64,000 nucleotides of DNA from Minutocellus sp. GHC0000111 (taxonomy: Eukaryota): positions 1,240,001 through 1,304,000 of the forward strand of contig OZ361258.1 of assembly GCA_977018835.1 (NCBI GenBank). Direction: 5' to 3'. Positions 4,656 to 57,512 of this stretch are shown piece after piece. The notes below the pieces were generated by a model. That model did not search any database and had not been told where the DNA came from. It saw only the letters and a program-made list of their open reading frames with translations. The translations under genes were made by a program, and so were the position numbers. Each line of letters begins with the position of its first letter. The stretch's first letter is position 1.

Positions 4656-5143
4656 ATGGCCCGAGGACGACGAGGCAGCGGGGGACGCTCCTCCCCCAAG
4701 AGGAGGGAGGACTGCCCCCCTCAGAACAGCAAGAAGATGAGGCACTCGCACCTTCCCAAGACTGGCGGCGCCGGTGACGACGACCCGCTGCCGCTGCCGC
4801 CTCCTTCTTCTCCCACCAAAAATACCAGTACCAGTTGTAGCACCGGTGGGACTGCCGCCTCCAACAATAACAACAACAATCCCAACAAGAAGCAGAAGAA
4901 GAAGCGCCATTCGCATCCCCCCCGCCGGTCCGTCAGCCCTCCGCCTCCCGGCCGAGCGCGGACATCGGTGCATCCTGCATCGCCGTCATCGACGTCGTCC
5001 AGGCCGGCGGCAGCATCTTCCAATTCCGCCATCCGAAGCAGCCGCAGCCGCAGCACGTCGCCTTTGCCCCGCGCGCGGCCGGTGTCGGCGGCCGACCCCC
5101 GGTGCCGCCCGATCGGCGCCCTGATCAACCTGGCCTCCATCGC

Positions 5144-7541: not shown

Positions 7542-9255
7542 CTGCGTAAGTAGTATTTATATTGCGTTAGTCTACATCCCCGGTGCTAGCGGCGATCACT
7601 CTAAGAGTGAAGGATGCACTAAGGCAACGCCCCCACCGATTGCGGCAGGAGCAGACCATTGAAGGTTTGTCCTTCAAGGTTAAATAGCTGGAAACCCCCG
7701 CTTGGGAGGAACAGCTGTGAATAATGACCATGCTATGTGTCTAACCAGTGTAGGTTTGACCTTGTGTGTTGTGACCTTTTTAGGTCCGTCCTGTGATAAT
7801 AAATATAAATTGGGAATTTCAATGAAAAAATTTTGTGATGATTGTTTGGGCATTGTCGGCATCGAGGCACTTCAAGTCTCCGTGCTTTGCTTTTATTGCA
7901 AGGAAGATCGTCCTGAGCCAGGTATGCTTGATAGATGGGTGTAGATTGATGCAGTCCTCGAGGGAGAAGGCTTCGAAGAGGCACAAGCTACTGGGTCGAA
8001 CGAAGTCGCTGGGGCTTCGGTACAATTGTCTGATGCGATTGTCCATCTTTTCGATGTTAATGTTGATGTTGGCGTCGTGGAGGATGCCGTTACGGTACTC
8101 CCAGATGGCGTGGAAGAATTGCCATGCGCTATTGATGAGGGCAGTTTGGAAGGTATGTGTTGATAGCATGTTCGAGGCGAGATCTGCTTCTTGATAGTAT
8201 TCACCTTGGGCTTTTCCCCAGTGTCGTGAGGTTCGGCCGCGGACCAGCATTGCACGGTATCGATAGCTTCAACCATCTTGGGGGAGAATGGGTGTCGAGT
8301 GCGGCCCCGCCGTCTGCAGCGTTTGCCTGCACACCTGCACGCTGCGATGAGGTCTCTTGCAATCGCGTTGTACTTCGTCTGTGCATCGTTGCATTCCAAG
8401 GATTGCTCGACTTCGTTGAATCTATCGAACAGATATTCAGAAACCACGCTCTGCAATTGCCGAATGATACGTTCCTGGCTGTTACTTCAATATCGTACTT
8501 GCCATTAGCGGAGACATTGAGGTCACACACTTCGGTGATTTCCTTCGCAATGTCTTCGTACAAGGGGAGGCTGGCATGAACGCGGAACATGAAACCGATG
8601 GGGACCGTGCGCAAGGCCGAGGTGTTGTTCATTTTCATGAATATCTCCCTGTTCGTTTTCGTCAGGAACTCGGTCACACCCTTTCTCTCCTTAATCTGTC
8701 GCAACGTGATAGTAGATCGGATACCGACGTGGCCTCTCATGATCGTTTTGCCAGTGCTGCGCTCGACACGGGTGTCGCCCTCATGGGCGTAGAATTTGAA
8801 CTGATCTTTGGGGATATTGAACACATCGTCGGCCGACTTGTCAGCCCATCCGACGCAAGGGAGATCCTCTCCACCTGGGAGGAGAGGAAGGGGGGCGAGC
8901 TGGACCTCGGGGCAGTTCTTGGTGATAGTGTTGGCCCAGTCTTGTACGCGGCCTTGGAACGATGGCATCGGCTTGCCATTGCGGATCCAATCCGATACGT
9001 TGAATTCGATCGTAATCGCGCTGTGCTGAATCGTTTCACCTGCGGTTTGGCCAGCAGCACCGCGATGGGTGTTGCTACCGCCCCGGCCGCCGCGATGTCC
9101 TCCTGGGCCGCCGCTATTGCCATTAGCGGGGGGTTGGGTGGACGTCATCTTGGCGGTAGGTAGGAATCCGTTGGTAGTGTAGGTAGAAAAAATACCGTGT
9201 GCTACGTAGAATTACTGTTGTTTGTCACTTGTACTCGACTCAAAAGCTTGAGGAG
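7542..9255 (-). mobile_element. Internally deleted non-LTR retrotransposon derivative (Ambal-like by resemblance), 1714 bp
   Basis: Flanked by the 16-bp direct repeat TGTGATCTTACATATA (7526-7541 and 9256-9271). Contains an ORF1-like N-terminus (ATG 9148), a post-endonuclease ORF2 piece (CRRRGRTRHPFSPKMVEA...W) and an ORF2 C-terminus (WGKAQGEYY...LINSAWQFFHAIWEYRNGILH; stop 7819), in three frames. No RT core is present. Confidence 0.75.
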
Positions 9256-13300: not shown

Positions 13301-15980
13301 ACGAGGGTCCGAGAATGGAATCGGAATAGAAGTTAGATTGTGCCAAATACAATTTTACTTGGACATGTATAAAAGTAAGACGAAGGTTGCAACATATTAC
13401 AAAATCAAGCCACACCAACACCTTTACTTGTGCCGATCATCACTCACCTTTCCCGATCCAGACCGGCCGGAGATTAAGGCCAACCCATGGCGTTCTTCGC
13501 CAGTCACCACCACACTCTCGAATGCACTCATTAACTTGCTTTGCTGAGTCTGCACACCATATAACTCAGACGTCATGTCCAACCTTCCCGTCGTTGCCTC
13601 TGGGGGAGCATCATAAAGATATTTGTTCGGGAAGTCAATCATTAAGCGAAGATCGTTATCGACGTCGGATAAGGAGGTGAACCTCTCAGCAGCGTCTTCA
13701 TCTGTGGCATCGATCAGACTTTGGACGAAAATGGACACACTGGTGGGATATCCAAGATCCTGAAGAGGGGCCCTAGAAGTGTGCCCAGGCTGCTCCTCAT
13801 CGCGACGGCGTTCTCGTTTCGATGTTCTTTCGTCGCCATTGTCACCTGGCACTGACCTCTCGCCATATGAAGACACCGCCGAAATACTGTCTTCACCCGC
13901 CAAAGTCCTATGTAAGGCTTCACCAAGCGAATGCAATTCCGCAGCAATCTGCCGGCCGGTCGCTGGAGCTCCATTATACTTCTCCCGAAGAGATCGTACT
14001 ATTTCTCTCGTGGCCCTGAGAGTGGTCAAAAGCTGCAGTGTAGGATCCAAATTCGAGTCGGTGCCATATTGCATCGGGCCACCCGCCTTATTGGAATCTT
14101 CGGCCGGTGCATGGGCAGAGTTTGTGCTTGTATCGAACATGCTTCCATTCATGCTACCCAAACCACTCTCGTCATCTTCCGCCAGTCGTCCGAGGTCGGA
14201 CATGAGCGAGGAATCGTCAGCAAAATCATCAAGGCTCAAAGAATTGTGCAATGCTGCCGGGAAGACTACACCTGCCGTTTCTGAAGGGAGAACTTTGCTA
14301 CCAGTGGTACCAATCTTTTCTCCGGACGTACTCGTACTGATAATTGGCCGCATCCCCGCTGGCGATCTGCCTTATACCAATCGTATTCTTCTTCTTGTTG
14401 CTTCGATAACTTTGCGAGGTAGAAACAATCGTTCTGCTTTCGTAATTCTTACCAACCTCCTTTTCATTCGGCGCCTTCTTTCCCCCCTTGGTACTGCTGC
14501 TGTGCGAAGGCAAAAGTATGCGTAGGTTTAGCTTCCGTGCGTCGTCCTCAAAGTAAATACCCTCCGGCTCTATAGTCCGCTCGTCATCAGTGCCACTGCT
14601 GTCGGCACTGGTAAAATCTGGTGATGAGGCTGCTGTCCGTATCGCGGCAGTATCCACGAGGCCCACCTCCCCGCTTCTCTGCACCCAGTACTCTTTACTC
14701 TTCTTTGTAGAGTTCGACTTCTTCCCCGCCTGAAGGCGCTCGAATTCCTCCCTGGCCGACGGAGGGATGAACTGGCAGGTCCCCCAGTGGAATCTCTGCC
14801 AGTTCCTCGTGGCCTGGTTGAGCATCCGAATCGAGGCGGGATAGCTGACGGCGCCCTTGGCCTGCTGGGCGGCTGGTCGGTCCCGGCAGTGGACGCACCG
14901 CATGCCGACTCTGCCGACGCTGATCTTTTGCACAGGTCCTCCTATCTGTCCACGAGTCTCGACCTCGGCCTCGGTCGCGGAGAATATCTCGAGCTGCGAG
15001 CGCATGAGACATACCAAAGGAGACAGAAAAGTTGCATCTTGTGACGAAAATAGGGGAAGGCGCCGTCCTCCAACGACTACTGCTGATGAATTGGCTTCGA
15101 CGGCATTCGCACCATTGGTTACCGGCTTTGGCCTGGGTGAGTGGGAGGAAATCGATGGGCTGGGTGGGAGCGGGTCAGGTTCCCAGGGGCTGCTACCATC
15201 TGCGCCCTCCTGTGAGTTATCACCGAGTAGTGCATGCAGTGCATCGAAGGTATTTTTTACGTCGAGAGGTGTTGGACATGACATTCCGTTACCTGAAGTC
15301 TGTTGAGGCGATGCACTGGCATTTGAAGGTCTGGAAGCTACATGCACCGCCGCCGTCGCTACTGCTACTGGAGTCTGAGTCAATATACCATTGGAAGCAT
15401 TGTCGCTGGAAAATTTGATACCGTTATCCCCATCATCGACCAACCCTCTCGCACGACAGCACGCTTCCCAATACTCCCCGTGGGTCATCTTGCGTCCTGT
15501 CGTCGGCATCGGGCCCTTGGCGACGACGCGGGGATCTTTTTTGCAGCGCTCGTATTCCGCCATAATTTCTGGCGGGATAGACCGGCAATGCATGATGTGG
15601 TAGCGCTGATAATTGCGGACGGCCTGGTGGACGAGACGGATGCTGGCGGGGAAGCTCGAGAAGTTGTTGGCCCGATCTTGCATCGGAAGGTGCCGGCAGT
15701 GGACGCACCGGATGCCGATGCGTCCCGACACGATGGGCGTTCGTACCCCGCCCCTGGAGCGGCGGTGGGCCTCATCTTGCTCGGTGGCGGCGAAGTATTC
15801 CAGCTGCCGACGAACGAAGCATGCGGTCGAGGTCAGGTACAGCGGGTCGGTGGGTTCCGACAGCAGCAGCAGCCGCATGGGCGCGGCCATTGCGGCGCCA
15901 GTCAAGCAAGTGCTCGCGTTTGCTCTGGCGATGGCGTCGTCGTCGCTGCTTGCACATGTGCTGCTGTCAGCGGGGAACAT
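10379..15980 (-). CDS. STAND/AAA_16-type NTPase with helical repeats and two N-terminal diatom-type Cys/His domains (introns 14281-14452 and 13270-13447; 1-bp frameshift at ~12378)
   Basis: Walker A GRSGSGK|TS spans an intron; Walker B VILFDDLQW; GGNP motif; RFAHDSI; C-terminal YDKAIEAAKEHRFINEQALASERA...YEAWGAHRK, as in COG3899-type ATPases. Two GR(I/V)G(I/M)RCVHC...S(F/Y)PASIR...RNxQRxHxxxC domains. Confidence 0.8.
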
Positions 15981-16633
15981 GGTAACAATAGAATGAGTGA
16001 GTAGTTGACGTGCCTGCCTTTTCAATCTCTGCTGCCCTGATGCTCTGGCTGATGATCACCACTGTCAGTGTCCGTGTTGTGTGCTGAGCGAGCGTCACGT
16101 GAGACCAAGCAGCCGGCAAGGGGGCCGGTGAGGCGAACCGGGAAATTGATCAAAGTTGAACTACGAAAGTCAATGTTCAAGTTGAATTACATGACATGAC
16201 TTTCGGACGGGACCACAAAAATCCCTCTTTCTCTCTTTTCCTCCCGGTGCAATCCCCTCCTCCCCTCTCCCATTCAAAAAGCGTGGAGTAGCCAGCGTGG
16301 AGCGGATCGATGGTGGATACGCGGATCTCCGGCCGCTCCCGCCCCCCGCCGCAGTGCTCTGATTGCTCAAACCAGACTACTACCCTGTATAAATTCTATC
16401 TAATCATAATTGAAACAATGCAGATATTCGTCAAGACGCTAACGGGCAAGACCGTCACCCTCGACGTGAACCCGTCGGACGAAATTAAAGTCGTCAAGGA
16501 TAAGATTAAGAGGGCGCTGTCCATAATTTTCCCCGTTTTTAATCCCCCTTATTCTTATTTCTTATGACGAGCGAAGCATGACAAAAACTCGACCCCACCA
16601 TGAGTATCGCCGCTCTGCCCCCTCTTCATTACG

Positions 16634-17863
16634 ATGAAGCGCAGCGCTGATAATAGTGCCGGCCCGGCCCACAACGCAGATACGCGGTTGCGGAAACTCA
16701 AGACAGATAACTCCGGTCGCCCGATTTTGCCTGTTGACAAGAAGAAAGAGAAGGCGGAGGACAAAGCGAAAGACGCCGTTACCGAGATACTGGAGGGCCT
16801 CGCCGTCACGTTGGAGAACGACCCGAACGGACAAGGACGAGAATTATGGAACAATCCCGGCGTCGGCCATGCACTTCAACATCTTGTCAAAGCAGTCGAG
16901 GCTCGCGCTGATAAGTATCATGTTCGGGATGATATTGATGTCGCTGCTGAGCGGCCCGGCCTCGTAGTTACCAACCTGTCCGTGGCTGATGTGAAGTTGA
17001 GGCTGACGGTCGGCATCGTCGATCAATTGCAAGATCCCATGTTTGACGCCGGACCTGAATTCTTCCCTATATTTCAACTTCATGGGAAACGGATCGATAT
17101 TGGATCGGCTCTTGCTGCGCACGGCCGACCTTTCAACACCACATCGCTTACTTTGCTTGATGGAAGCGGAAAGCTTATCGTCGCTCGTGTTGCCCTGACA
17201 ATTACCGAAAAGGCCCGAAGTCTACAACAGGGCCATGTGATCAAATTGACAAAGTTCCACCGATGGTATGTGGCTCCATATGATGACATACACTCTACTG
17301 CTGGGATTGGACTAGTTGATTTTGATATTGTTGGAATGGGCCAACTTCTGCAGGTAGATGGTGGGCCATCAGCAGCGATCAGATCGGACACGGATGCTCT
17401 TGTTGCGGCCGTTTGTGAGGAAGGCGACGATGATCCGACGGCAGCGCCGGAGGCAGACACATTCGGTAATTGGGACGAGACCAGAGAGAGGCCGCCAATA
17501 CCCCCTGCTTGCTGCACTGCCGCCAACCGAAGCTGCTCAATGTACGGCACACTCTTCTTTCAGAAATGCGTCTGCGAAGAAATGCTGGTGCCGACGGAGG
17601 AGGACCTGGAGGATATCGCTGACAAATACTACGCAACCACCATGCCAGTCGAAGCCATGGCAAATAATTTGAAGAGGAACATGCTGTATTGGTACTATGC
17701 AACTGAGGTGTATCATGTGAGAGGTTGGCTTGATCGGAAGCCCTTGCCAACCTGTCTAGTCTTTTGCATTAGGTTCATTTATCCAAATGATAAAGGTGAA
17801 CGATATGTTGGATTCATCCCTGGTCATCAAGATGAAGAGGAAGAAGAAGAGGAAAATGCATAA
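16634..17863 (+). CDS. Transposon accessory protein: putative OB fold plus KolX/P2X7-C-terminal-like domain
   Basis: Intact 409-aa ORF. C-terminal CC...C...KCVCEE...NNLKRNMLYWYY...RKPLPTCLVFCIRFIYP...YVGF matches the P2X7-ballast/KolX pattern. The N-terminal half has LTVGIV...PIFQL...LTLLDGSG...GHVIKLTKF. Confidence 0.75.
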   Translation: MKRSADNSAGPAHNADTRLRKLKTDNSGRPILPVDKKKEKAEDKAKDAVTEILEGLAVTLENDPNGQGRELWNNPGVGHALQHLVKAVEARADKYHVRDDIDVAAERPGLVVTNLSVADVKLRLTVGIVDQLQDPMFDAGPEFFPIFQLHGKRIDIGSALAAHGRPFNTTSLTLLDGSGKLIVARVALTITEKARSLQQGHVIKLTKFHRWYVAPYDDIHSTAGIGLVDFDIVGMGQLLQVDGGPSAAIRSDTDALVAAVCEEGDDDPTAAPEADTFGNWDETRERPPIPPACCTAANRSCSMYGTLFFQKCVCEEMLVPTEEDLEDIADKYYATTMPVEAMANNLKRNMLYWYYATEVYHVRGWLDRKPLPTCLVFCIRFIYPNDKGERYVGFIPGHQDEEEEEEENA

Positions 17864-17967
17864 TCATTACCTCAACACATGTAGATAACAAGAATGTGCG
17901 TAGCACATGAGTAACAGCACACAATAAATCCATTTTTATTTACAGTGATAAAATATTTTACACGTGT

Positions 17968-20284
17968 TTACAAGCTGCCATTTTCTCTCAGTATCGCCGG
18001 CATCCAAGAGCTAACATCATTTGCCGATACACCGAAGTTTGTCTTAGCTTTCTTATTATTTCTTGCAGATTTCTTGTTGCTGCCTGGGCTTCTGCGCTTC
18101 TTTCCGGCGTAAACGACAACGTCGTCAGCATCGTCGCATTGACATTCAGCCCGAGTGTGGCCAAGCTGCTTGCATTTCTGACACTGCTGGTCAATCTTCT
18201 TCTTGCGGCCAGGCTTTGCTGGTTTCGCCTTACCAGCAGCTAGGGCCCTGTTCTTCTTGTACACATAGTCCTTGTCGTCTTTCTCGCTTCTGTTTCGCAA
18301 GGCTGCTCGAAGGCGCTTGCTGTCGCTCTTGCTCTTTTTGTACTCATCGGTGCGCTTACGCGCAAGGTCGCCCTCGAGCTTCCGGTCAATTGCATCGAAT
18401 CCATCTTTTCGGGTAGGAGAATCCCTCGATCCCAACTTTCCAAGAACTCGCTCATTGAATTCCGTACCCAGTGACTTGTGGCCAGCGGCTCTAATTGTTG
18501 CATTTGGGTAGGCGTCTGAAGCAGTCAAATTCGGCCTTTTCCCCATCGTGAACTTCGTCACCATCCCGTTGAGCTGTTCGACGCCGGTGGTAGATTCCTT
18601 CTTGCAGTTGGAGTCGGCAGTATTCTTGTTGATTCTCTTGGTTATTTCAAGCGTCATCTTGCGAATCGTGTCGTCACTAATCTCCAATATGTCGCCATCG
18701 AATTGATTCCCCGAGCTCCATTCCTCATCGAGCTTGCCATCACTCCAATCAGGATGAGCAATGCTGAGGCGAATCCAATCACACGTGTTGGTGGTGCAAA
18801 AAGTGTGAATGCCACATTGGTGACGAACGATGGACTGGAGTTCTTTCTGAAGGAGGGCCAGATGACTTTGTTTTTCCTCCTCGGACACAGCACCATCGGG
18901 CTGATCGAGAACGCTGTGCTTGTGCCGATCAGTAATCTTCGAAATGTCCTGTTTCATCCGATTGATGCGTGGTCGGGGGATGGCATTAAAATTTTCAACT
19001 CCCAACATTCTCGGCCAGATGCTCCTCTGCCACACCGGGGGAGTAGGAAGAGTTGCGATGGCAGAAGCCATCATGGTCGTACAGGGCCAGTGTCTCATCC
19101 TTGCTCATGTTTTTGAGCTCACTCGGCGTTATTGGATTGCCGGCTTCCCGCCTCTCCCTCAATCTTGCATTGCAGGCTCTCACGCAACAGTGGCAGCTTG
19201 CCTGAGAGATTCCCTTGTCAACAACAAGGCCAGTTTCCTTGTCTACGGCAAATGCCGCTGCAGCAGAGCCAGTGTAGCAATGGCCGTAGTCGCGTTTGAG
19301 GGCGCTGCCGTCTTGGGCCACCGTAACCACCGCCGCCGTGTGCATCTCGCCGCCTTGTTCAAACTCAACAGTCTTGCTGCTAGCGGCACATGCTTTTGCC
19401 CTGTTCTCGTCAATGATTTCATCGGCTGCTTCAATAGCCGCTGCTCTGCATTTCTTTTCCACCTGTCGGGCATTCTTTTCGGTCGGATGGACGATGTCGG
19501 CCTTCGTGCAGAAATTCATGAAGCGACTTGCGCACATGGCCTCATCTTCCGCTGCCTCCATCAGCTCCAAGTTCATTCCAGCCTGACTTCTAGAATGCTT
19601 TCTGCCGGGGCACACAACTTCTGACCTCTGGCCGATCCAAGTGCAAAAAGAAAAAAAAGGTTGGTTGCATCTATCGCATCGCCATTCAAATGTAACGCCG
19701 AATCCACGCCGAACTGGCTCGGCCGAGAGATGCAGATTGCCGCACGATCGGTGGAGATTCTGTGCGAAATCACACAGCTGCTTCATCTCAACCACAATTC
19801 TTTTGCCGTTGAGCTGCACGCCGGTGATGTTGGGACGATCGGTAGCGTTGGCGGTGGGAGTAGATGACCGACCGCCCGAAGAACTCTTGTCGGAACAACA
19901 TTTCAGTGTCGCGTTGAGATGGGGCCCATGCTTTTCATCGTCCTGGAAGTAATTTTCAGGTGTGGTCGGCAGTGATCGCTTGCCATTGCGTTGAGAGCGT
20001 GGGCTGGCGTTATCGGCTATTCTGGAGAAGCGGTAGAAGGGCTTTGCAACGTCAAGGCCTGATATTTTCTCTGGACGTCGTCGTTGGATGTTGACCTCGT
20101 GTCGTGTTGGGACGTGTTGAAGAGATGATCGAACAAGAGAGATCTCTAAGCTCGGCGATGCGCCACCGCGCATCAAGATACGGACAACCTCATCAATAGT
20201 GTAGAAAGTACATCTGACGTCGTCTGGGAATGAGAGCAAGAGTGAGAGGATTGCCTCCTTGGCGTTAGCACGTGATGTTTCCAT
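17968..20284 (-). pseudogene. DDE transposase with an internal deletion/frameshift at ~18995-19003
   Basis: 5' part: C...GFGVTFEWRCDRC, VTVAQDGSALKRDYGH, ETGLVVD...CHCC, HDGFCHRN...AEE. 3' part, in another frame: SIVRHQCGIHTFC, TTGVEQLNGMV...KR and a CQKCKQLGHTRAEC zinc knuckle. Confidence 0.8.
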
Positions 20285-21943
20285 GGTTGTTTTTTTGTTT
20301 TGTGTCGGCTCTGGCGCAAGACACGCTTTTCGATGAGAACCTTGCAAAAAGAACCCCAAATGAGGGAGACGTGCAAAAATACCCCAAACAAATATCCCCT
20401 TACCTCCCAACAGCAAAACTTCAAGATATCTTCCCACCAGCACCACCAATGCTGGTCATGCGTCGGCCGAGACTAATTTCGGTCGATCCGACGATGATGT
20501 GCACGTCGACTGCCATGTTTCTGAGGGAGAGTTGATTCATCGAAGTTCCTCTGAACCAAGTGTTCCTGGAGGGATTTCCGACTTAATGCTGAAAGGAACG
20601 TCGATGACTCTTCGCCACTGTGGAGAGCGGCGGCCTTCGATGAGGAGCCCATTGTCACGTTGGAGTGCTAACTTTGGCGATGGTGCGAAGAAAAAACGGC
20701 ACAAAACACGCATTTTGGGGGCTTCCTAAAAGTTATGGACAGCGCCCTCTTAAGGAACTCGAGGGCATTCCGCCCGATCAGCAGCGAATCATCTTCGCCG
20801 GCAAGCAGATAGAGAACAGGCGGACGCTCTTAGACTACAACATTCAGAAAGAGACCACTCTTCACTTGGTCCTACGCCTGACGGGCATGATATCGACCTT
20901 CTCCTCCTCCGACGCATCCGATCCCTTGGTCGCATATCTACTGCTGACCGATGAGGAGAGGAAATCGGCTTCCATTCCCACGGAGGAACTTCGGGAGAAA
21001 GAAAAGACCGAATATGCAGGATTTTACACCTATCGGTACGACCCCACGTGCGACATACTTCATGAGTCTCATCGAACTTTTCTTTGTGACCTACTCGATT
21101 TCGTTTGGTCGAAGACTGCGTCAAAGGATCCCAATCGTGTCGATATGCGCGTGGCCATGACCAAGGAGCAGCTCCTGTCGGTAAGTGAGCAATGAATGCT
21201 ATAATGAAACGAATGTATTGTGTGATGAATGTATCTTATATGCTCTTGTCTTCTGCCCTTTAGATTGATAATATCTTCATCATGATTTGTGATACTGTCC
21301 ATAATCTTCATTCATCACCAGATCTTGGGTTCATTGGACGGTGAGATGGATGATGCACACAAGGCCAACAAAGTTGTTCGCGGGCTTGAAGCGGCCTTTT
21401 GTAGAGTGCCCGGTGCCCGCGGTGATGCAAAGTATGCCCTGCGCATGACTAAGGCCTCGAACAATTGCATCACCTTTCATTGCGATGGGGGATACGCAAC
21501 CTCGACTTCTCAGATTCCTCTCAATGACCCTTCCGAATATAAGGGTGGGAAGCTTTGTTACTTTGTGAACGATCAGTTGCACTTTGTCCCTCGTACCCCT
21601 GGATCACTTGTTCAGCATCCTCCCAGGGTCCTTCATGGAGTCACCAGAGTCACGGAGGGAACGCGCAAGAGTTTCTTCATCGTCGACACCAACAACGGAC
21701 TTGGCGACAAGGGTGTTGTCGAACTTGAGGCTGATACCATTGTTTCATTCTTGGCTTTTATGAGCGAAAAGAGGGGAAGCAAGCCTTCTGCTGCAAGCAC
21801 CATCAGTGCCGGAGAAAAGCGAAAGCGCGGGGCTGGAAAGTGAAGATTGAGAAAGATTTGGACACACTGTACACTCGTACACTCCCACTTTGATAGACTG
21901 GGGCTCGATAGAACATTGTAGAAAAAAATGATGTAACTCCTAG

Positions 21944-23155
21944 CTAGGATCGCATTATCGCAATAGCATCATCAGTGACACTCATACCATTCATCTCAAA
22001 GTTTGTGTTTGGCATATTCTGCATGGTCTGCCAGGTACACCCATCTTTCTTCGCTTCATCGCCAAGAGGCGGCTTGCCTCGCTGCACCGTACCATCTCCC
22101 CACCATATCGTGCCGTTGCCCCGAGTGCTATCGAATTCAACAAAGGTTCCATGCGAAAAGAATCGTCGCCAAATACCATCGTGACTGCCCTTGGTACCAT
22201 TGCCATTGGGCTGACCCAAAGGACGATCGTATTCCTCCCTCCAGTCGAGCCACACATCCGGCCTTTGAGGCCAAGGTTCGTCAGACGACCAGCCCTTGGC
22301 ACAATGATAGTAGGCATACTCTCCAGCTCCGATGAGGAATGCCGCCATAGCATTGATATCGCCATGGCCACATCCATTCTCGGTTGCGTTGGTCCCATCA
22401 TCCACAATGCCTCCGGCATGTGCCTGAACGCCCAACCCTCGTTCGGCGGCAAGCTGTAGCGATTGGATGCAGTGCTCCGAGGCGGCAAAGTCCTCAAACA
22501 TCATCATGGTGGTCCCTTCCGCCGGCAGACCCTGATTATTAGATATGGCAAACGATCCAATGGACGCCAACCGTCTGTTGAGTTCCGATAGAGTTTGCAT
22601 GTGTGCCAGCTCAAATCGGACGGAATCTTCCTTGGACATGACTTGAACGGCCGATACCTGCGTCATGTTATTGGATCGATCGATGTAGCATCCATCGCAC
22701 CCATCTACCACGGCCTGGAGACAGTCCGATATCCAACGTTCCCGCAGCTCGGGGATGGACAAAATGAAGCACCAGGCCCCGTCTGGTCTGCCCGTGATGG
22801 TAATATCTTTGCCCGACGTATCTTTGAGACGCCACTCGGGATGGTCCAGCATGAGGTCTTGCAACTCATAGAACGGCCAGTCAAATACCGAATTTAGGTA
22901 GTACATGGCAACGACATTTGTTTTGTTGCCGTTGCTTGCAGCGGCGGCGGCAGCCTTGACACGTTGGCACTCTCCTGGCAGGATGTGTTCCTGTCTGCCT
23001 CGACCATTCTTATTCGCATGGGCCTTCTCGAATGTTGCCATCGAATAGCGGCCGATCTCGGCCAGAGCCTCGTGACTCCACACGCCGCTGGAATTGCCGG
23101 AATGGAAGAAGACCGGGAGGGTGCTCCACGAGAAGGGACCGAGGAGGCTGTTCAT
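21944..23155 (-). CDS. Putative glycoside hydrolase (GHL15-like TIM barrel)
   Basis: 403-aa ORF with FSWSTLPVFFH, YYLNSVFD, GCDGCYID, MAAFLIGAGEYAYY, EYDRPLGQP and GIWRRFFSHGTFVEFD. Confidence 0.65.
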   Translation of the reverse strand: MNSLLGPFSWSTLPVFFHSGNSSGVWSHEALAEIGRYSMATFEKAHANKNGRGRQEHILPGECQRVKAAAAAASNGNKTNVVAMYYLNSVFDWPFYELQDLMLDHPEWRLKDTSGKDITITGRPDGAWCFILSIPELRERWISDCLQAVVDGCDGCYIDRSNNMTQVSAVQVMSKEDSVRFELAHMQTLSELNRRLASIGSFAISNNQGLPAEGTTMMMFEDFAASEHCIQSLQLAAERGLGVQAHAGGIVDDGTNATENGCGHGDINAMAAFLIGAGEYAYYHCAKGWSSDEPWPQRPDVWLDWREEYDRPLGQPNGNGTKGSHDGIWRRFFSHGTFVEFDSTRGNGTIWWGDGTVQRGKPPLGDEAKKDGCTWQTMQNMPNTNFEMNGMSVTDDAIAIMRS

Positions 23156-23625
23156 GGCGAGGCTTGGAGTCTTGGAGTGCGGTGTGGTGGACAGAATGAC
23201 TGAATATCTAACTGACGCCTGAGCCGCCGGACTGATGAGCCGTCAGGATAATCTGCAAAGCAGTCAGCAATCTTTACAGGGATCCCGAAAAGTACATGTA
23301 CCTGAAAGGCGACAACAATATTAATTTTTAGCGAGACAACAACAGGAGGAAAAAGCGCCCAGGACCCACCAAACAAACGCGCCATGGCGCGCGGAACGCA
23401 GCAACTTTGGCGAGCCGATGCACTTGGCGAGCGATGCACTTGGCGAGCCTCCGCTGGCGAGGTTCTACTACGTAGTAGCTAGGCCTACATGTATGTACTC
23501 GTTCAGCAGTGCATTCTTCATCACCGCTACTTCCCTGCATAAGTCGCGCCAACTTCTTGCTAGCTACGTAGCTCTACTAGCTAGCTGGCTCACTAACCTC
23601 CGGTTAGCTTCGTACCGTCGTCGTC

Positions 23626-26684: not shown

Positions 26685-27035
26685 CCAGCATTTGGCCATG
26701 CAACTCATAGAACGGCCAGTCAAATACCGAATTCAGATAGTACATGGCAGCAACATTTGTTTCGCTGCGGTTTGCAGCGGCGGCGGCTGCCTTGACACGT
26801 TGGCACTCTCCCGGCAGTATGCGTTTCTGTCTTCCGCGACCATTCTTATTGGCATGGGCCTTCTCGAATGTTGCCATTGAGCGAATATCGACCGATTTCG
26901 GCCAGAGCCTCAGCACTCCACACGCCGCTGGAATTGCCGGAGTGGAAGAAGACCGGGAGGGTGCTCCACGAGAAGAGACCGAGGAGGTTGTTCATGGCGC
27001 GGCGAGAGGGAGGCTTGGAGTGCAAGTGGTGGACT
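26685..27035 (-). pseudogene. Diverged 5' fragment of the glycoside hydrolase gene at ~22850-23180
   Basis: Colinear and clearly similar sequence (MNNLLGLFSWSTLPVFFHSGNSSGVWS...YYLNSVFDWPFYEL) with a frameshift near 26878; truncated. Confidence 0.85.
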
Positions 27036-45787: not shown

Positions 45788-45928
45788 TTCCGAGGTCCAC
45801 GATCGGCTTAGACCGAGAATTACCTGCAATTCGCATCAGTTGCGGATCAAGAAGGGTGTATTCCGAGGTCCGCGATCGGCTTGGACCGAGAATTACCTGC
45901 AATTTGCATCAGTTGTCGATCAAGAAGG
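45788..45928. repeat. Imperfect tandem duplication, period 73 bp
   Basis: TTCCGAGGTCC(A/G)CGATCGGCTT(A/G)GACCGAGAATTACCTGCAATT(C/T)GCATCAGTTG..GATCAAGAAGG occurs at 45788 and 45861. Confidence 0.85.
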
Positions 45929-46785
45929 TCGCACACATGTGACTGTTTCAAGGGAGGCGGCGACGCTTCGGGCGAAGCGTGTTCTTGGTTTTCAAAAATT
46001 TTGTGCGTGGTGAACGTGTACCTAGGTATGGACTGGAAGAGGGCCTTCATGCCAGCAGAGACAGTCCTGACTACGTGGAAGACGACCAGGATTACTTGGA
46101 TTTTCTCACCGATTCTCTCCAGCATGGAGATGGAGAGGGTCGGTCCGATTGCGTCCTTAATTGAAGAAGCGCTTCTGTTGGAGAACGGTAGTGGCATTCG
46201 CAGTCAACACATAAACAGAATTCTGAGATCGGATGATGTTGCATCACTTGTTCAAGACAGCGACGATGAACTTCAAAACGAGGGAATGTTGCTTATTTTT
46301 TTCGGATGCATGATGCACCAGTTCATTAACTTTTTAAAGTTGGATCCAGAATATGCTTCCTTGTGTCAGTGTGGCCACAAGAGTGTCTTCGTCTCGAGAA
46401 TAGGAGATCACAAAACAGCAATAGTGCAAGTGGATCAACTCTTTCGTTTCCGTACACAATGTCGTTCATGAAGGAGTTGTTGGACGCGGCGAGCTCGGTC
46501 GAAGAACCCGACAGGCCTAATCCTGTTGTTGAGTTTGTTACGGACAAATCTCTTTGGGGTGTTTGGAAGGCATGTTGCCGCCATAATCACTCTAAAGGCG
46601 ATGGCCTGTTTGCAACGGTTTTGTCCATGACTTATGATGTGATGTTTCCTGTTTTCATTAAGAGGGCGCTGTCCATAATTTCCCCCGTTTTTAATCCCCC
46701 TTATTCTTATTTCTTATGACCAGCGAAGCATGACAAAAACTCGACCCCACCATGAGAATCGCCGCTCTGCCCCCTCTTCATTACG

Positions 46786-48015
46786 ATGAAGCGCAGCGCT
46801 GATAATAGTGCCGGCCCGGCCCACAACGCAGATACGCGGTTGCGGAAACTCAAGACAGATAACTCCGGTCGCCCGATTTTGCCTGTTGACAAGAAGAAAG
46901 AGAAGGCGGAGGACAAAGCGAAAGACGCCGTTACCGAGATACTGGAGGGCCTCGCCGTCACGTTGGAGAACGACCCGAACGGACAAGGACGAGAATTATG
47001 GAACAATCCCGGCGTCGGCCATGCACTTCAACATCTTGTCAAAGCAGTCGAGGCTCGCGCTGATAAGTATCATGTTCGGGATGATATTGATGTCGCTGCT
47101 GAGCGGCCCGGCCTCGTAGTTACCAACCTGTCCGTGGCTGATGTGAAGTTGAGGCTGACGGTCGGCATCGTCGATCAATTGCAAGATCCCATGTTTGACG
47201 CCGGACCTGAATTCTTCCCTATATTTCAACTTCATGGGAAACGGATCGATATTGGATCGGCTCTTGCTGCGCACGGCCGACCTTTCAACACCACATCGCT
47301 TACTTTGCTTGATGGAAGCGGAAAGCTTATCGTCGCTCGTGTTGCCCTGACAATTACCGAAAAGGCCCGAAGTCTACAACAGGGCCATGTGATCAAATTG
47401 ACAAAGTTCCACCGATGGCATGTGGCTCCATATGATGACATACACTCTACTGCTGGGATTGGACTAGTTGATTTTGATATTGTTGGAATGGGCCAACTTC
47501 TGCAGGTAGATGGTGGGCCATCAGCAGCGATCAGATCGGACACGGATGCTCTTGTTGCGGCCGTTTGTGAGGAAGGCGACGATGATCCGACGGCAGCGCC
47601 GGAGGCAGACACATTCGGTAATTGGGACGAGACCAGAGAGAGGCCGCCAATACCCCCTGCTTGCTGCACTGCCGCCAACCGAAGCTGCTCAATGTACGGC
47701 ACACTCTTCTTTCAGAAATGCGTCTGCGAAGAAATGCTGGTGCCGACGGAGGAGGACCTGGAGGATATCGCTGACAAATACTACGCAACCACCATGCCAG
47801 TCGAAGCCATGGCAAATAATTTGAAGAGGAACATGCTGTATTGGTACTATGCAACTGAGGTGTATCATGTGAGAGGTTGGCTTGATCGGAAGCCCTTGCC
47901 AACCTGTCTAGTCTTTTGCATTAGGTTCATTTATCCAAATGATAAAGGTGAACGATATGTTGGATTCATCCCTGGTCATCAAGATGAAGAGGAAGAAGAA
48001 GAGGAAAATGCATAA
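46786..48015 (+). CDS. Transposon accessory protein (OB fold plus KolX-like), copy 2
   Basis: 409 aa, with one residue difference from copy 1 (RWYV vs RWHV). Confidence 0.75.
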   Translation: MKRSADNSAGPAHNADTRLRKLKTDNSGRPILPVDKKKEKAEDKAKDAVTEILEGLAVTLENDPNGQGRELWNNPGVGHALQHLVKAVEARADKYHVRDDIDVAAERPGLVVTNLSVADVKLRLTVGIVDQLQDPMFDAGPEFFPIFQLHGKRIDIGSALAAHGRPFNTTSLTLLDGSGKLIVARVALTITEKARSLQQGHVIKLTKFHRWHVAPYDDIHSTAGIGLVDFDIVGMGQLLQVDGGPSAAIRSDTDALVAAVCEEGDDDPTAAPEADTFGNWDETRERPPIPPACCTAANRSCSMYGTLFFQKCVCEEMLVPTEEDLEDIADKYYATTMPVEAMANNLKRNMLYWYYATEVYHVRGWLDRKPLPTCLVFCIRFIYPNDKGERYVGFIPGHQDEEEEEEENA

Positions 48016-48119
48016 TCATTACCTCAACACATGTAGATAACAAGAATGTGCGTAGCACATGAGTAACAGCACACAATAAATCCATTTTTATTTACAGTGA
48101 TAAAATATTTTACACGTGT

Positions 48120-50433
48120 TTACAAGCTGCCATTTTCTCTCAGTATCGCCGGCATCCAAGAGCTAACATCATTTGCCGATACACCGAAGTTTGTCTTAGC
48201 TTTCTTATTATTTCTTGCAGATTTCTTGTTGCTGCCTGGGCTTCTGCGCTTCTTTCCGGCGTAAACGACAACGTCGTCAGCATCGTCGCATTGACATTCA
48301 GCCCGAGTGTGGCCAAGCTGCTTGCATTTCTGACACTGCTGGTCAATCTTCTTCTTGCGGCCAGGCTTTGCTGGTTTCGCCTTACCAGCAGCTAGGGCCC
48401 TGTTCTTCTTGTGCACATAGTCCTTGTCGTCTTTCTCGCTTCTGTTTCGCAAGGCTGCTCGAAGGCGCTTGCTGTCGCTCTTGCTCTTTTTGTACTCATC
48501 GGTGCGCTTACGCGCAAGGTCGCCCTCGAGCTTCCGGTCAATTGCATTGAATCCATCTTTTCGGGTAGGAGAATCCCTCGATCCCAACTTTCCAAGAACT
48601 CGCTCATTGAATTCCGTACCCAGTGACTTGTGGCCAGCGGCTCTACTTGTTGCATTTGGGTAGGCGTCTGAAGCAGTCAAATTCGGCCTTTTCCCCATCG
48701 TGAACTTCGTCACCATCCCGTTGAGCTGTTCGACGCCGGTGGTAGATTCCTTCTTGCAGTTGGAGTCGGCAGTATTCTTGTTGATTCTCTTGGTTATTTC
48801 AAGCGTCATCTTGCGAATCGTGTCGTCACTAATCTCCAATATGTCGCCATCGAATTGATTCCCCGAGCTCCATTCCTCATCGAGCTTGCCATCACTCCAA
48901 TCAGGATGAGCAATGCTGAGGCGAATCCAATCACACGTGTTGGTGGTGCAAAAAGTGTGAATGCCACATTGGTGACGAACGATGGACTGGAGTTCTTTCT
49001 GAAGGAGGGCCAGATGACTTTGTTTTTCCTCCTCGGACACAGCACCATCGGGCTGATCGAGAACGCTGTGCTTGTGCCGATCAGTAATCTTCGAAATGTC
49101 CTGTTTCATCCGATTGATGCGTGGTCGGGGGATGGCATTAAAATTTTCAACTCCCAACATTCTCGGCCAGATGCTCCTCTGCCACACCGGGGGAGTAGGA
49201 AGAGTTGCGATGGCAGAAGCCATCATGGTCGTACAGGGCCAGTGTCTCATCCTTGCTCATGTTTTTGAGCTCACTCGGCGTTATTGGATTGCCGGCTTCC
49301 CGCCTCTCCCTCAATCTTGCATTGCAGGCTCTCACGCAACAGTGGCAGCTTGCCTGAGAGATTCCCTTGTCAACAACAAGGCCAGTTTCCTTGTCTACGG
49401 CAAATGCCGCTGCAGCAGAGCCAGTGTAGCAATGGCCGTAGTCGCGTTTGAGGGCGCTGCCGTCTTGGGCCACCGTAACCACCGCCGCCGTGTGCATCTC
49501 GCCGCCTTGTTCAAACTCAACAGTCTTGCTGCTAGCGGCACATGCTTTTGCCCTGTTCTCGTCAATGATTTCATCGGCTGCTTCAATAGCCGCTGCTCTG
49601 CATTTCTTTTCCACCTGTCGGGCATTCTTTTCGGTCGGATGGACGATGTCGGCCTTCGTGCAGAAATTCATGAAGCGACTTGCGCACATGGCCTCATCTT
49701 CCGCTGCCTCCATCAGCTCCAAGTTCATTCCAGCCTGACTTCTAGAATGCTTTCTGCCGGGGCACACAACTTCTGACCTCTGGCCGATCCAAGTGCAAAA
49801 GGAAAAAGGTTGGTTGCATCTGTCGCATCGCCATTCAAATGTAACGCCGAATCCACGCCGAACTGGCTCGGCCGAGAGATGCAGATTGCCGCACGATCGG
49901 TGGAGATTCTGTACGAAATCATGCAGCTGCTTCATCTCAACCACAACTCTTTTGCCGTTGAGCTGCACGCCGGTGATGTTGGGACGATCGGCAGCGTTGG
50001 CGGTGGGAGTAGATGACCGACCGCCCGAAGAGTTCTTGTCGGAATAACATTTCAGTGTCGCGTTGAGATGGGGCCCATGCTTTTCATCGTCCTGGAAGTG
50101 ATTTTCAGGCATGGTCGGCAGTGATCGCTTGCCATTGCGTTGAGAGCGTGGGCTGGCGTTGTCGGCTGTTCTGGAGAAGCGGTAGAAGGGCTTTGCAACG
50201 TCAAGGCCTGACATTTTCTCTGGACGTCGTCGTTGGATGTTGACCTCGTGTCGTGTTGGGACGTGTTGAAGAGATGATCGAACAAGAGAGATCTCTAAGC
50301 TCGGCGACACGCCACCGCGCATCAAGATGCGGACAAGCTCATCAATAGTGCAGTAAGTGCATCTGACGTCGTCTGGGAATGAGAGCAAGAGTGAGAGGAT
50401 TGCCTCCTTGGCGTTAGCACGTGATGTTTCCAT
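48120..50433 (-). pseudogene. DDE transposase, copy 2, with the same deletion/frameshift at ~49147-49155
   Basis: The junction AENVGS*/GVENFNAIP is identical to copy 1. Confidence 0.8.
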
Positions 50434-50902
50434 GGTTGTTTTTTTGTTTTGTGTCGGCTCTGGCGCAAGATGCGCTTTTCGATGAGAACCTTACAAAAAG
50501 AACCCCAAATGAGGGAGACGTGCAAAAATACCCCAAACAAATATCCCCTTACCTCCCAACAGCAAAACTTCAAGATATCTTCCCACCAGCACCACCAACG
50601 CTGGTTGTGCGTCGGCCGAGACTAATTTCGGTCGATCCGACGATGACGTGCACGTCGACTGTTATGTTTCTGAGGGAGAGTTGATTCATCGAAGTTCCTC
50701 TGAACCAAGTGTTCCTGGAGGGATTTCCGACTTAATGCTGAAAGGAACGTCGATGACTCTTCGCCACTGTGGAGAGCGGCGGCCTTCGATGAGGAGCCCA
50801 TTGTCACGTTGGAGTGCTAACTTTGGCGATGGTGCGAAGAAAAAACGGCACAAAACACGCATTTTGGGGGCTTCCTAAAAGTTATGGACAGCGCCCTCTT
50901 AA

Positions 50903-51159
50903 GACAGGCGCAGATAAAATCCCCGGGTCAGGGACAGACAGACAGACCACACTCATCATTTTTAGGTCATGTGTAATTTTTGACAAAGATGCGCTCTAAC
51001 TCTGCCGATTTTCGCGTGAAGTGCGCGTTATTTTTCTCATGAGAGTGTTTGTGTTGCGAGCGTTTTACGAAACTTCCTTAATGAGAAATGAAAAAAATTG
51101 CACTTTGAGCAAAAATGGTCTGTTTTCGTCCTGACCCGGGGATTTCTTTTGCGCCTGTC
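50903..51159. mobile_element. MITE, 257 bp, with ~30-bp imperfect TIRs
   Basis: Left end GACAGGCGCAGATAAAATCCCCGGGTCAGG; right end reverse complement GACAGGCGCAAAAGAAATCCCCGGGTCAGG. Flanked by TTAA and TTAT. Confidence 0.85.
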
Positions 51160-55800: not shown

Positions 55801-56914
55801 GAAATTTGATGTTGATTGATGATGCTGTCACCCCCAACCGCGAAAGACGATTCACCCATTCCGGATAGTGAGACCGGGGAGCATATCCAACGCGTTTGGT
55901 CGGTTCCGCTGGTGCAGTCGGCTCTGTAGCAGGAATGGTAATATTGTTGTATTTTGTCGGTGCAAATGAAGCAATGGCCTGGGCGGTGGTTTCACTTTCA
56001 TTTTCGTCGCCCACCAACAGGGCACGGGAAGCACCACTGGACGAGATTGACCAAAGTACCTCGGCGTTTGAGCTGAACATGACCTGGCCGATGCTTATCC
56101 CTCTTGACTGATCGCTGGTACCATTGCTATTTCTGCTCTTGGCCAACAAATTGGCTTCATACGCTGCTATTGCTGCAGCCTTTCTCGCGCCCTTCTTGCT
56201 CTTGAAATACACAAGGCCGTCACCAAATATTTTGCTCTCCCCAAGCTTGGTCAGAATGATTTTCCAATCTGCATGAGTAAATGTATCATCGTCACCCTAG
56301 GTATCGTCAGCGTCGGACATACAAGCATGTGTAAGCCAAACCGACCAGGGCAGTCCCGATGGATATTCCCGATCCAGCACGGGACAGTGCAGTACCGACC
56401 TCCACCAGCCCGTGATGATCCCCCTCTCGTTACGATGTTGGATGTCCCGGTAGGTCGGTTGCTTTGGTTTGCCGTTGTTCGAATTGTTCTCGCCCTTGTT
56501 TTTACCCCTGCCCTTGTCGAGGGATTGGTAGTATTCCAATAATGCGGACGTTGGGTCGGACGTCCCGATGGCGGTGACGAGGGTCCGTTCGGCTTCCCTC
56601 ATCAATGCCTCGTGCTGCTGCTGTTCCAACACCTCACTTCTCGAGCATGCACATATGGAATCATCTATGGACTGCAGGCTTGCCAGATCGTCGCTTGTAT
56701 CGATGCTGCTGCTGATCGAATGAATGCTTGCACAATCATCGTTGCCGATGCCGACATCATTGTCATTGTCGTCATCATTGTCCGCAATCGCTGTCGGGGG
56801 TGGAACGCGGGAACCCAACAGCACGACGGCGTCACCGGTACATGTACCACTCACGCTCACTCCGCCGGCGGCACGGCGTCGCTTGGACATCAGGGTGGGA
56901 CTGGATCCGATCAT
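52852..56914 (-). pseudogene. Helicase-less Dicer-like gene (dsRBD-like, PAZ-like, two RNase III); in-frame TAG at 56297-56299 and frameshift at ~53478
   Basis: DPTSALLEYYQ...YFKSKKGARKAAA (dsRBD-like); YEFYSERY...LPPELL (PAZ-like); YQRLEFLGDAIL...LSDVVEALI (RIIIa); RDNLFFIGNYAL (degenerate RIIIb). Confidence 0.8.
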
Positions 56915-57512
56915 GATGCGCGCGGCATACCTACCGGTAGGTATGTGGTATGGCTGTTGGGGTATAAGATACGCGGCGAGTAAAACCAGCACACATGATG
57001 TGCCGATGCCATGTTTCCGTTGGCCTCGCTGAAAAATTTCGACGCCCCCCAAGAACCTTCTTTTGTCACAGGCCCACTGTTTGACTGTTGCATTTGAATG
57101 CACTTGTTTTGAATTTCAGCCAATTTATCGGTTCAAGCTGGCATTCTCTCGGCATCTGCCCGTGCCGTCGGCTTCACTTTGTGAAGGGAAGCATCATCAT
57201 TCCGCCGCACCCACCATTCATTTGTTCCTTGTTCCGACTCTGATTTGGCATTTCATTCGCTGCAGAGATACCCAGCAAACAATTTCATTGACCGGTATCT
57301 TCGTTGCGTTGCACCTCCTCGGCGAGATTCCAACCGAACTTTCACCGCCCCGCCGCCGCTTCGCTTTGTGCCTGCTTTCCTTCGCCGCGGCATCCCCCTC
57401 TCTTTCTGTTTCCCACTGGCGCTTTCGGTTACCGGACCTGAAAGCGGAAATCGGATCCGGTAATTTATTATTGCATTTCATCTCGTTCCTTTGGCCGATA
57501 CTAGTAAGCAAT

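Follow-up and report, generated by a model that had tools for sequence, protein, structure and literature searches.

Two young Kolobok-type transposon copies from a diatom are missing the central catalytic part of their transposase and belong to a family with a TpA mutation signature of probable host origin

Two closely similar elements with unrelated flanks lie in the same orientation in the window analysed here, a stretch of 64,000 nucleotides of DNA, and this arrangement raises the question of what kind of mobile DNA they represent, how they were moved and which process wrote the differences between them. A sequence-only reading of the window had placed both copies exactly and had described them as recently inserted Kolobok-like transposons of a diatom, and the diatom host is supported. 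According to the reading that is favoured here, with a probability of about 85%, they are young Kolobok-type copies inserted at TTAA that lost the catalytic middle of the transposase and were probably moved in trans, and the TpA signature of their family probably stems from a host mutator. The two copies are delimited by the following features:

16506..16509, left TTAA duplication of copy 1
16510..20749, Kolobok-type copy 1, 4240 bp, a non-autonomous deletion derivative
16510..16526, plus strand, left terminal inverted repeat (TIR) of copy 1, 17 bp, starting with GA
20733..20749, minus strand, right TIR of copy 1, 17 bp, ending with TC
20750..20753, right TTAA duplication of copy 1
46658..46661, left TTAA of copy 2, its junction being also a loose end in run X7
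46662..50898, Kolobok-type copy 2, 4237 bp, with the 215-nt deletion as in copy 1
50899..50902, right TTAA of copy 2, doubling as the left flank of a MITE-like element
50903..51159, MITE-like element, 257 bp, with GA..TC ends, followed by TTAT

Both copies read TTAA-GAGGGCGC...GCGCCCTC-TTAA, and the 17-bp TIRs and GA..TC termini of the sequence-only reading were recovered in each of them, with 17 perfect bases in both copies and 20 matches out of 21 in copy 1. The elements accordingly combine RR..YY termini and short TIRs, as in Kolobok, with a 4-bp TTAA target duplication on both occasions, which likewise agrees with Kolobok. Since TTAA occurs only 45 times in the 64-kb window, its presence at all four element ends is not due to chance. 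The proposed duplication is further borne out by an empty allele with a single TTAA and by loose ends just outside TTAA, where at least nine other insertions begin among the 24 loose ends listed. A 5-bp duplication of TTAAG was rejected because it would leave asymmetric ends and because other insertions diverge straight after TTAA. An assembly artefact was dismissed in view of the unrelated flanks, the 42 differing columns and the occurrence of filled and empty junctions in the reads. The MITE-like element, with imperfect TIRs of 30 bp that are unlike those of the two copies, is probably a non-autonomous member of another Kolobok family.

Copy 1 splits a host ubiquitin-fusion gene at codon 30-31, and the reading frame of this gene is open across the empty site:

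16418..16509, plus strand, 5' part of the ubiquitin-fusion gene, codons 1-30, matching Pfam ubiquitin positions 1-28
20754..21843, plus strand, remainder of the gene, matching Pfam ubiquitin positions 31-71

The remainder contains an intron at 21180-21320 (GT..AG), and the open frame runs to a stop at 21843, which is not a mapped gene end. A search of reads for an empty site at 16506, proposed along with the sequence-only reading, yielded the empty allele (joint of 16505 to 20750, with the element and one TTAA absent) in 4 of 4 runs, at a depth of 85 in run X1 compared with 191-207 on the flanks, and spliced contigs with the empty site were present in RNA runs X6 and X7. The coexistence of filled and empty alleles supports the claim of recent mobility, and copy 1 represents a segregating knock-out allele of the ubiquitin-fusion gene.

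The predicted layout of convergent accessory and transposase genes, at 16634-17863 on the plus strand and 20284-17968 on the minus strand, was also found. The idea of intact two-gene elements did not hold, however, since the second catalytic Asp and the DxxH motif are missing from both copies:

18995..20284, minus strand, 5' part of the copy 1 transposase, 429 aa with a stop just past the deletion, 95% identical to the intact relative P0019, matching Pfam PF20700 at E 1.2e-12
19310-19312, minus strand, first catalytic Asp of the copy 1 transposase
17968..19002, minus strand, 3' remainder of the transposase, equal to residues 499-842 of the intact form, 98.8% to P0019 by tblastn
19001..19003, minus strand, junction of the 215-nt deletion in copy 1, between two GGA triplets of the intact form
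46786-48015, plus strand, accessory gene of copy 2
49147-50433 and 48120-49154, minus strand, transposase pieces of copy 2

P0019, an 842-aa protein on record that is 95-99% identical to the transposase of the copies, carries the complete set of catalytic residues (D324, D451, DxxH at 481-484 and E640). In both copies the deletion removes residues 428-498, and tblastn with P0019 places residues 1-427 and 499-842 in different frames. The out-of-frame remainder of copy 1 retains the second zinc finger, together with the catalytic Glu at 18577-18579 and a CCHC knuckle at 18142-18183. This knuckle, which the sequence-only reading had put near the transposase end, is located about 57 residues upstream of it and matches Pfam zf-CCHC at E 0.011, below the cut-off of that family. 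An intron explaining the two frames was rejected, as sequence is missing rather than extra and the lost block does not have GT..AG ends; moreover, loose ends at 19002 in runs X1 and X6 continue into the deleted block. Among 15 listed members of the transposase cluster, seven show the deleted form (one of them equal to the frame of copy 2 itself), four are intact across the junction and four are uninformative. With this deletion and frameshift, copies 1 and 2 are non-autonomous deletion derivatives, and the loss of the catalytic middle in both implies that they were probably moved in trans by an intact relative. P0019 has an open frame yet bears many TA-derived changes, so that it may not be active itself.

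MuDR and other MULE elements generate variable target duplications of 8-11 bp, whereas the present element has a fixed TTAA target and short TIRs. That the element is a MULE or a piggyBac instead of a Kolobok appears very improbable, although PF20700 carries the name Mutator-like, and although piggyBac duplicates TTAA too and some of its members have a short KolX-like protein (PMC9587614). The termini of piggyBac follow the rule YY..RR (PMC9587614), in contrast to the GA..TC ends found here, and RR..YY termini speak against MULE as well. Additionally, a zinc finger lies between DxxH and the catalytic Glu (the H559-H564-C567-C572 region of P0019, kept in homologues), and this finger is absent from MuDR, P and hAT (PMC9587614). 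The motifs D, D, DFNH/DWNH and E are kept in order in P0019 and four homologues (5/5 aligned), as are both zinc fingers, and their order, compared by eye, matches the published Kolobok alignment. Judged by its sequence, the element is a Kolobok-type cut-and-paste DNA transposon, the original assignment being upheld by the agreement of termini, TTAA duplication, motif order and zinc finger. A search of the transposase profile against solved structures yielded no relative at E<=5, and none of 24 candidate stretches in viral contigs contained a relative. Distant relatives with 24-26% identity were detected in 3 of 102 metagenome candidates, two of which (L001 and L002) retain the convergent gene layout, the ends of L001 running off its contig.

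The second gene had been regarded as a KolX-like partner, and its product comprises two modelled domains:

16634..17863, plus strand, accessory gene of copy 1, open frame of 409 aa
16982..17401, plus strand, OB-fold domain, about residues 117-256, closest to RPA70N
17504..17827, plus strand, KolX/P2X7-ballast-like domain, about residues 291-398

The OB-fold domain aligned with RPA70N over 113-117 residues (VIA Z 11.6, rmsd 2.7-2.8), with a Foldseek E of 6e-4 and a family-profile E of 2e-4. The only chain with Z>=5 among 48,161 for the ballast-like domain was rat P2X7 (residues 479-595; VIA Z 5.7, rmsd 3.8, 98 aligned); the top 12 Foldseek rows were all P2X7 with a best E of 0.15, and the family profile reached E 5.7e-5. 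The P2X7-ballast match is weak on every single measure. Cysteines 294, 301, 312 and 374 are conserved at >=90% among 101 family members, 22 of which match PF20478 at E<=0.01; the window protein searched alone gave no Pfam match, and the ESM Atlas contained no usable match to it. On these models the accessory protein is an RPA70N-like OB fold joined to a reduced KolX/P2X7-ballast-like domain, and the fold and profile matches bear out the partner gene.

The transposase and accessory protein clusters comprise 170 and 71 proteins, respectively, and the element contigs reach about 55-65 times the flank depth in run X1, a depth ratio that does not equal a copy number. Copies 1 and 2 differ by 39 substitutions and one 3-bp indel, which are distributed unevenly:

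19649..20514, segment divergent between copies 1 and 2, with 32/39 substitutions and 18/20 TA events

Over 3.1 kb the two copies have a rare haplotype in common, while in the 0.87-kb segment they differ as much as any two members of the family do; this segment was probably exchanged with another member. The local hopping proposed in the sequence-only reading is therefore partly backed by the sister haplotype, and the ordinary family divergence over 0.87 kb as well as the presence of the copy 1 accessory protein on a contig of different length count against it. An evenly balanced alternative without a local hop is that each copy was inserted independently from one and the same sub-lineage, or that gene conversion made them alike later. 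About 60-100 copies would place some neighbours within 30 kb by chance (a rough estimate), the exact accessory protein of copy 1 is on record on a contig whose length differs from that of the contig carrying other window genes, and each copy has TA losses of its own in 19649-20514. On the other hand, the two copies show 0 differences over residues 237-420, compared with a mean of 7.0 and a next lowest value of 3 among the 66 pairs, and both share Gly264; of the 14 other accessory members listed, 13 do not have it and one cannot be read at that position. A hop also predicts that neighbours are nearest relatives, and copy 2 looks older, with 16 TA losses compared with 9 and a junction in the run of another study. 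Copy 1 thus derives most likely from the lineage of copy 2, and a 30-kb hop as the route is plausible but unproven, with odds that are about even.

With respect to the differences themselves, 25 of the 34 transitions between the copies fall into TA/TG/CA events, for which 20% was expected (p 4e-11). In the family, 30 of 86 possible TA-destroying changes were seen versus 18 of 1326 other transitions (p 5e-27), most of these counts being amino-acid changes of relatives read against the window DNA. The corresponding values for four host genes are 3/179 and 93/2843 in a control made up of coding DNA on which purifying selection acts and which comes partly from other strains or species; a paralogue pair within the window gave 1/16. 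As read from these comparisons, a TpA->TpG/CpA signature is present in the family and absent from the tested host genes. It resembles the process known from Bigelowiella in that A:T->G:C changes occur at TpA on both strands and host genes are spared. The changed A is followed by C in 12 cases, by T in 10, by A in 2 and by G in 1 (TAC/TAT 22/25, p 0.001), and ApT adenine methylation as the context was rejected as a poor fit to this distribution. All four combinations occur in 8 of 21 Cys/His column pairs, a result to which recombination as well as recurrent mutation can give rise. Along the element, the 5' half of the transposase gene bears the signature most strongly:

19002..20515, heaviest TpA->TpG/CpA zone, with 27 of 30 variant rows listed of TA type, compared with 2 of 7 in 16510-19001

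A sequencing artefact was excluded, since the single-copy flanks of run X1 differ in 0/687 and 1/851 letters and the variant types recur in contigs from Illumina RNA runs that belong to two other studies.

DNA polymerase eta causes A->G changes at WA with TA as the hottest site, and an error-prone repair of excision gaps by this enzyme could produce the signature independently of a dedicated defence. With this origin, a single repair process would account for the mutations as well as for the deletion and the mosaic segment. The preference for TA fits it, another four of the differences between the copies are of the type AA/AG or TT/CT, and gap repair is also suggested by the deletion and by the mosaic structure. 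It is nevertheless unlikely, since near-saturated single sites (Tyr129 and Tyr185, changed in 15/15 sequences and split between both strands) are more specific than a polymerase would lead one to expect, and since, of 648 other A:T->G:C changes that were possible, only 6 occurred, again a higher specificity than expected. The same signature, moreover, is reported for single-copy silent viral inserts with no excision (bioRxiv 10.64898/2026.01.13.699255).

Diatoms methylate CG in transposons, and the differences might accordingly reflect CpG decay (CG->TG/CA), TA then being the product of mutation at both positions; five TG/CA doublets between the copies fit either origin and three differences are CG/TG. 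The outgroups P0004 (87%) and P0008 (49%) retain Tyr and Ile, however, and this polarity already largely refutes CpG decay, which is extremely improbable. In addition, Cys or His occurs in 17 of the 18 columns where the outgroups have Tyr, CpG-decay products occur in only 2 of 36 Arg columns, and 5 of 165 possible CG losses were seen. The observed/expected ratio of CG is about 1 in the element, and that of TA is reduced to 0.31-0.41 compared with 0.56 in the window. On the favoured reading, the signature probably stems from a host mutator that is directed at mobile DNA.

In the proposed mechanism, an intact transposase with D324, D451, DxxH and E640 would bind the 17-bp TIRs and join the element ends to TTAA cut with a 4-base stagger, and the accessory protein may serve as a zinc-binding OB-fold helper of transposition. 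The 215-nt deletion would have arisen once, by slippage or aborted gap repair between the two GGA triplets, and would then have been amplified. The lineage of copy 2 would have given rise to copy 1, possibly by the 30-kb hop, and the 0.87-kb piece would have been exchanged with another family member. The change of A to G in TA, mostly in TAC and TAT and on either strand, would most likely result from DNA adenine deamination that recurred independently in different copies.

The mutation pattern matters more than the transposon itself, which alone is a modest addition, namely a diatom Kolobok family with an OB-fold and KolX-like partner. We lean slightly towards the wider view that diatoms direct a TpA adenine mutator at transposons by the same process as Rhizaria, acting repeatedly in young mobile copies with a TAC/TAT preference and a focus on 1.5 kb around and behind the transposase start. 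If so, an inverse-RIP genome defence would be shared by two eukaryotic supergroups, and the family would provide a polymorphic, countable substrate for finding the enzyme; a natural TA-preferring DNA adenine deaminase would also interest genome-editing work. Old saturated repeats represent the end state of such a process, whereas mutated and unmutated TA sites coexist here in dozens of differently aged copies, so that rate, sequence preference, strand balance and gradient are measurable and a link to transcription or small RNAs is testable. In the literature searched, targeted A-to-G change of nuclear DNA has been reported only from one chlorarachniophyte, and on TpA loss in diatoms that search, which left most subscription papers outside, gave only the Bigelowiella preprint as relevant. 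Kolobok in diatoms and the TpA process in Bigelowiella are known already; new here is a partial, recurrent TpA mutation on a recently mobile family, together with a host control.

Repeat-induced point mutation (RIP) of ascomycete fungi likewise aims dinucleotide-specific transitions at repeats, with the opposite chemistry: RIP makes TpA from CpA, whereas TpA is destroyed here. Among transposons, the Kol0 lineage of Kolobok-1_XT type with KolX (Kojima & Bao 2022, PMC9587614) shares the TTAA duplication, the RR..YY ends, the DDE core with DxxH and a downstream zinc finger, and a second gene with a P2X7-ballast-like domain. The Kol0 hosts are animals, however, and the present partner protein has four conserved Cys instead of seven, with the RPA70N-like OB fold in front. 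The present transposase also has a terminal knuckle and a CCHC finger behind the first Asp, the latter not listed for Kol0 but for KolobokP, E, D, Kolobok5 and some solitary families (PMC9587614). Diatom Kolobok is already published, and Kolobok_1_FraCyl of Fragilariopsis cylindrus (Data S5 of PMC9587614) has the same motif order and both zinc fingers, although its first-Asp, second-Asp and DxxH motifs differ in sequence and, judged by eye, it clearly belongs to a different family. Hypermutation at TpA was described for integrated NCLDV and virophage DNA of Bigelowiella natans by Mettrop et al., who propose adenine deamination and an extension to transposons (bioRxiv 10.64898/2026.01.13.699255). 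Both cases share TpA->TpG and TpA->CpA changes on both strands of foreign DNA only. The Bigelowiella process concerns single-copy silent viral inserts of a rhizarian, followed in mutation-accumulation lines, whereas the present one affects a recently mobile DNA transposon that is present in multiple copies in a diatom, is deduced from the comparison of copies, and is partial, graded along the element and marked by the TAC/TAT preference.

Both Kolobok-type insertions show the structure TTAA-GA...TC-TTAA with 17 perfect TIR bases, in a window that contains only 45 TTAA sites. The sequence-only reading of two same-orientation copies with 17-bp TIRs, TTAA duplications, GA..TC termini and unrelated flanks was borne out at the following positions:

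16510-20749: copy 1, Kolobok-type element
46662-50898: copy 2, orientation as copy 1, flanks unrelated to those of copy 1

The diatom host is likewise supported by window genes: the best named matches of a neighbouring gene are diatom proteins (56-60%), and another gene shares a 90% cluster with a named diatom protein. A 257-bp MITE-like element at 50903-51159, with GA..TC ends and 30-bp TIRs, shares the right TTAA of copy 2 and is followed by TTAT; it likely represents another Kolobok family, and copy 2 may have inserted into its target duplication. Two tandem 68-bp copies (93% alike) are located at 45788-45928, 0.7 kb left of copy 2. By eye, 19298-19309 (plus strand), the codons just past the first catalytic Asp, match 11 of the first 12 TIR bases; this stretch, also found at the corresponding site of copy 2, is a possible cryptic internal end. 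The window also contains a Dicer-like gene with a PAZ and two RNase III domains (52852-57115, minus strand), the closest stretch of which is some 2 kb away from copy 2, a proximity that is probably coincidental, a 29-bp inverted repeat (2843-2929, 97% matched, 29-bp loop) directly after an ORF at 868-2778, and a 315-aa ORF (8201-9148, minus strand) without a Pfam match that might be a mobile-element remnant.

According to the accessible part of Kojima and Bao (PMC9587614), Kolobok elements are characterized by TTAA, RR..YY ends, a C/DxxH motif and a zinc finger ahead of the catalytic Glu that is absent from MuDR, P and hAT. The intact 842-aa transposase relative P0019 and four homologues (47-56%) retain the Kolobok motifs and the zinc finger in the published order, as judged by eye, which together with TTAA and the RR..YY ends upheld the proposed Kolobok type; the Pfam label of the transposase domain, Mutator-like (E 3e-20), was not taken as a superfamily assignment. 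For Xenopus, the accessible texts describe TTAA, RR ends and partner MITEs (PMC6004289), and they mention Kolobok once in a diatom genome (PMC7466962), and the alignment in PMC9587614 already includes a diatom Kolobok, by eye of a different family from that of the window. A second Kolobok transposase, P0176 (853 aa), is a chimera whose first 100 residues are 84-91% like the window family and whose remainder is mostly 81-99% like another family (P0175, P0195); it likewise carries Tyr to Cys/His changes.

Copy 1 interrupts a ubiquitin domain, its insertion point falling between positions 28 and 31 of the profile, and the frame is open once the element and one TTAA are removed. Four of 23 listed sequencing runs were compared with 15800-21600, and all four contained the corresponding empty allele with a single TTAA (joint 16505 to 20750), thereby confirming the empty site expected at 16506. 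In run X1 this joint had a depth of 85 and the flanks one of 191-207, which fits a site that is heterozygous or mixed. Spliced contigs carrying the empty allele came from RNA runs of two further studies (X6 and X7). Nine of the 24 loose-end rows among those listed lie at an outer TTAA edge with varied flanks, so that these other insertions sit in TTAA too, which speaks against copies lacking it; one of the nine, from X7, is the left flank of copy 2. The target duplication is real, the copy 1 insertion is young, and the Kolobok-type family is genuine and has moved recently.

The transposase is split into two frames in both copies: residues 1-427 (95%) and 499-842 (99%) of P0019, which belongs to the same cluster, match in different frames, and the missing 215 nt include D451 and the DxxH motif. 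Of the proposed active two-gene family, recent mobility stood, with empty and filled alleles, whereas both window copies are non-autonomous. In X1 and X6, loose ends at position 19002 run into the missing block, indicating that intact and deleted forms coexist. The transposase cluster comprises 170 members, of which 15 are listed: seven of the deleted form (one being the frame of copy 2 itself), four intact across the junction and four uninformative. The accessory-protein cluster has 71 members, and element contigs in X1 reach about 55-65 times the flank depth, a rough hint of copy number only.

A Pfam search with the 409-aa accessory protein alone gave no match, and 208 relatives were detected at E<=0.001. 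An alignment of 101 members (the window protein and 100 of 150 listed relatives) gave profile matches to the P2X7 tail (E 5.7e-5) and RPA70N (E 2e-4), and 22 of the 101 matched PF20478. The predicted structure (pLDDT 81.7) matched RPA70N at Z 11.6. The C-terminal domain modelled alone (pLDDT 84.6) matched P2X7 479-595 at Z 5.7, the sole match with Z>=5 among 48,161 (next 3.0); Foldseek also ranked P2X7 first, but at E 0.15. The proposed KolX-type partner was thus substantiated as regards its KolX-like domain, although four conserved Cys, versus seven in KolX of Kol0, leave a resemblance that does not pass the full Kol0 test. The partner gene represents a new domain combination, RPA70N-like plus KolX-like; no mention of an OB fold was found in the accessible part of Kojima and Bao (PMC9587614). 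The protein may act as a helper in transposition. The convergent layout is retained at two distant metagenome loci. One of these loci, L001 (transposase 27%), has TIRs of at least 97 bp at 652-771 and 4659-4782 and an apparent intron in its transposase. An upstream ATG frame of 16 codons (16600-16650) runs across the start of the accessory gene in a different reading frame.

Local hopping of the family was only partly supported. Copies 1 and 2 are identical over residues 237-420, the lowest value among 66 pairs (mean 7.0), but differ at 14 of residues 1-208, an ordinary value (mean 11.7). The segment 19649-20514, which diverges as ordinary family members do, holds 32 of the 39 DNA substitutions, and the adjoining 647 bp on the left have none; the copies are thus either sisters with one exchanged segment or homogenised over 3.1 kb. 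The odds that they are related by a local hop appear about even. Copy 2 has more TA losses than copy 1 (16 versus 9) and its junction occurs in another study's run, which would make the direction from copy 2 to copy 1 the likelier one. The exact accessory protein of copy 1 is also on record on a contig of a different length, so the sub-lineage may extend beyond the window.

The chief interest lies in a TpA hypermutation (TA to TG or CA) seen part-way, alongside a host control. Between the copies, TA/TG/CA events account for 25 of 34 transitions versus 20% expected, and 22 of 25 changed A bases had C or T on their 3' side (p 0.001). With outgroup polarity, 17 of 18 Tyr columns of the outgroup P0004 contain Cys or His in the family, and CpG-decay products occur in only 2 of 36 Arg columns. 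Counting minority residues one transition away, TA-destroying changes made up 30 of 86 possible versus 18 of 1326 others for the accessory gene plus the 3' remainder of the transposase, and 3 of 179 versus 93 of 2843 in four host genes, which are coding DNA under selection; most such counts are protein-based. These tallies exclude every change other than a single transition (14 in the element, 117 in host genes), as well as one member of eight that fell short of the identity cut-off and the 5' half of the transposase, whose reference sequence already carries mutations (14/24). A paralogue pair in the window gave 1/16. The partial duplicate of a GHL15-like gene (22846-23163 and 26685-27003, 84-92% identity), used as a control, lacks the TA signature. 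Among 37 element rows of the 40 read variants listed, TA-type changes comprised 27 of 30 in 19002-20515 versus 2 of 7 further left. Mean pairwise protein distance was 3.3-6.7% over transposase residues 1-420 and 3.2% over 501-580, and 1.3-1.8% close to the C-terminus; the accessory protein showed 1.0-2.2%. Eight of 21 column pairs hold all four Cys/His combinations, which requires recurrent mutation or recombination. Besides the selected host control and the mostly protein-based counts, the TpA reading has against it that TA is likewise low (0.33-0.40) in a few stretches lying outside the element.

In viral inserts of Bigelowiella natans, TpA to TpG/CpA changes were described by Mettrop et al. 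(bioRxiv 10.64898/2026.01.13.699255), who, in the accessible part of the preprint, put forward adenine deamination and point to transposons as additional possible targets. Diatoms are not mentioned in that part, the supplements may list transposon or other-species data, and a literature search found no diatom report of the signature. The window family carries exactly the same change as the Bigelowiella natans inserts, here on a diatom transposon.
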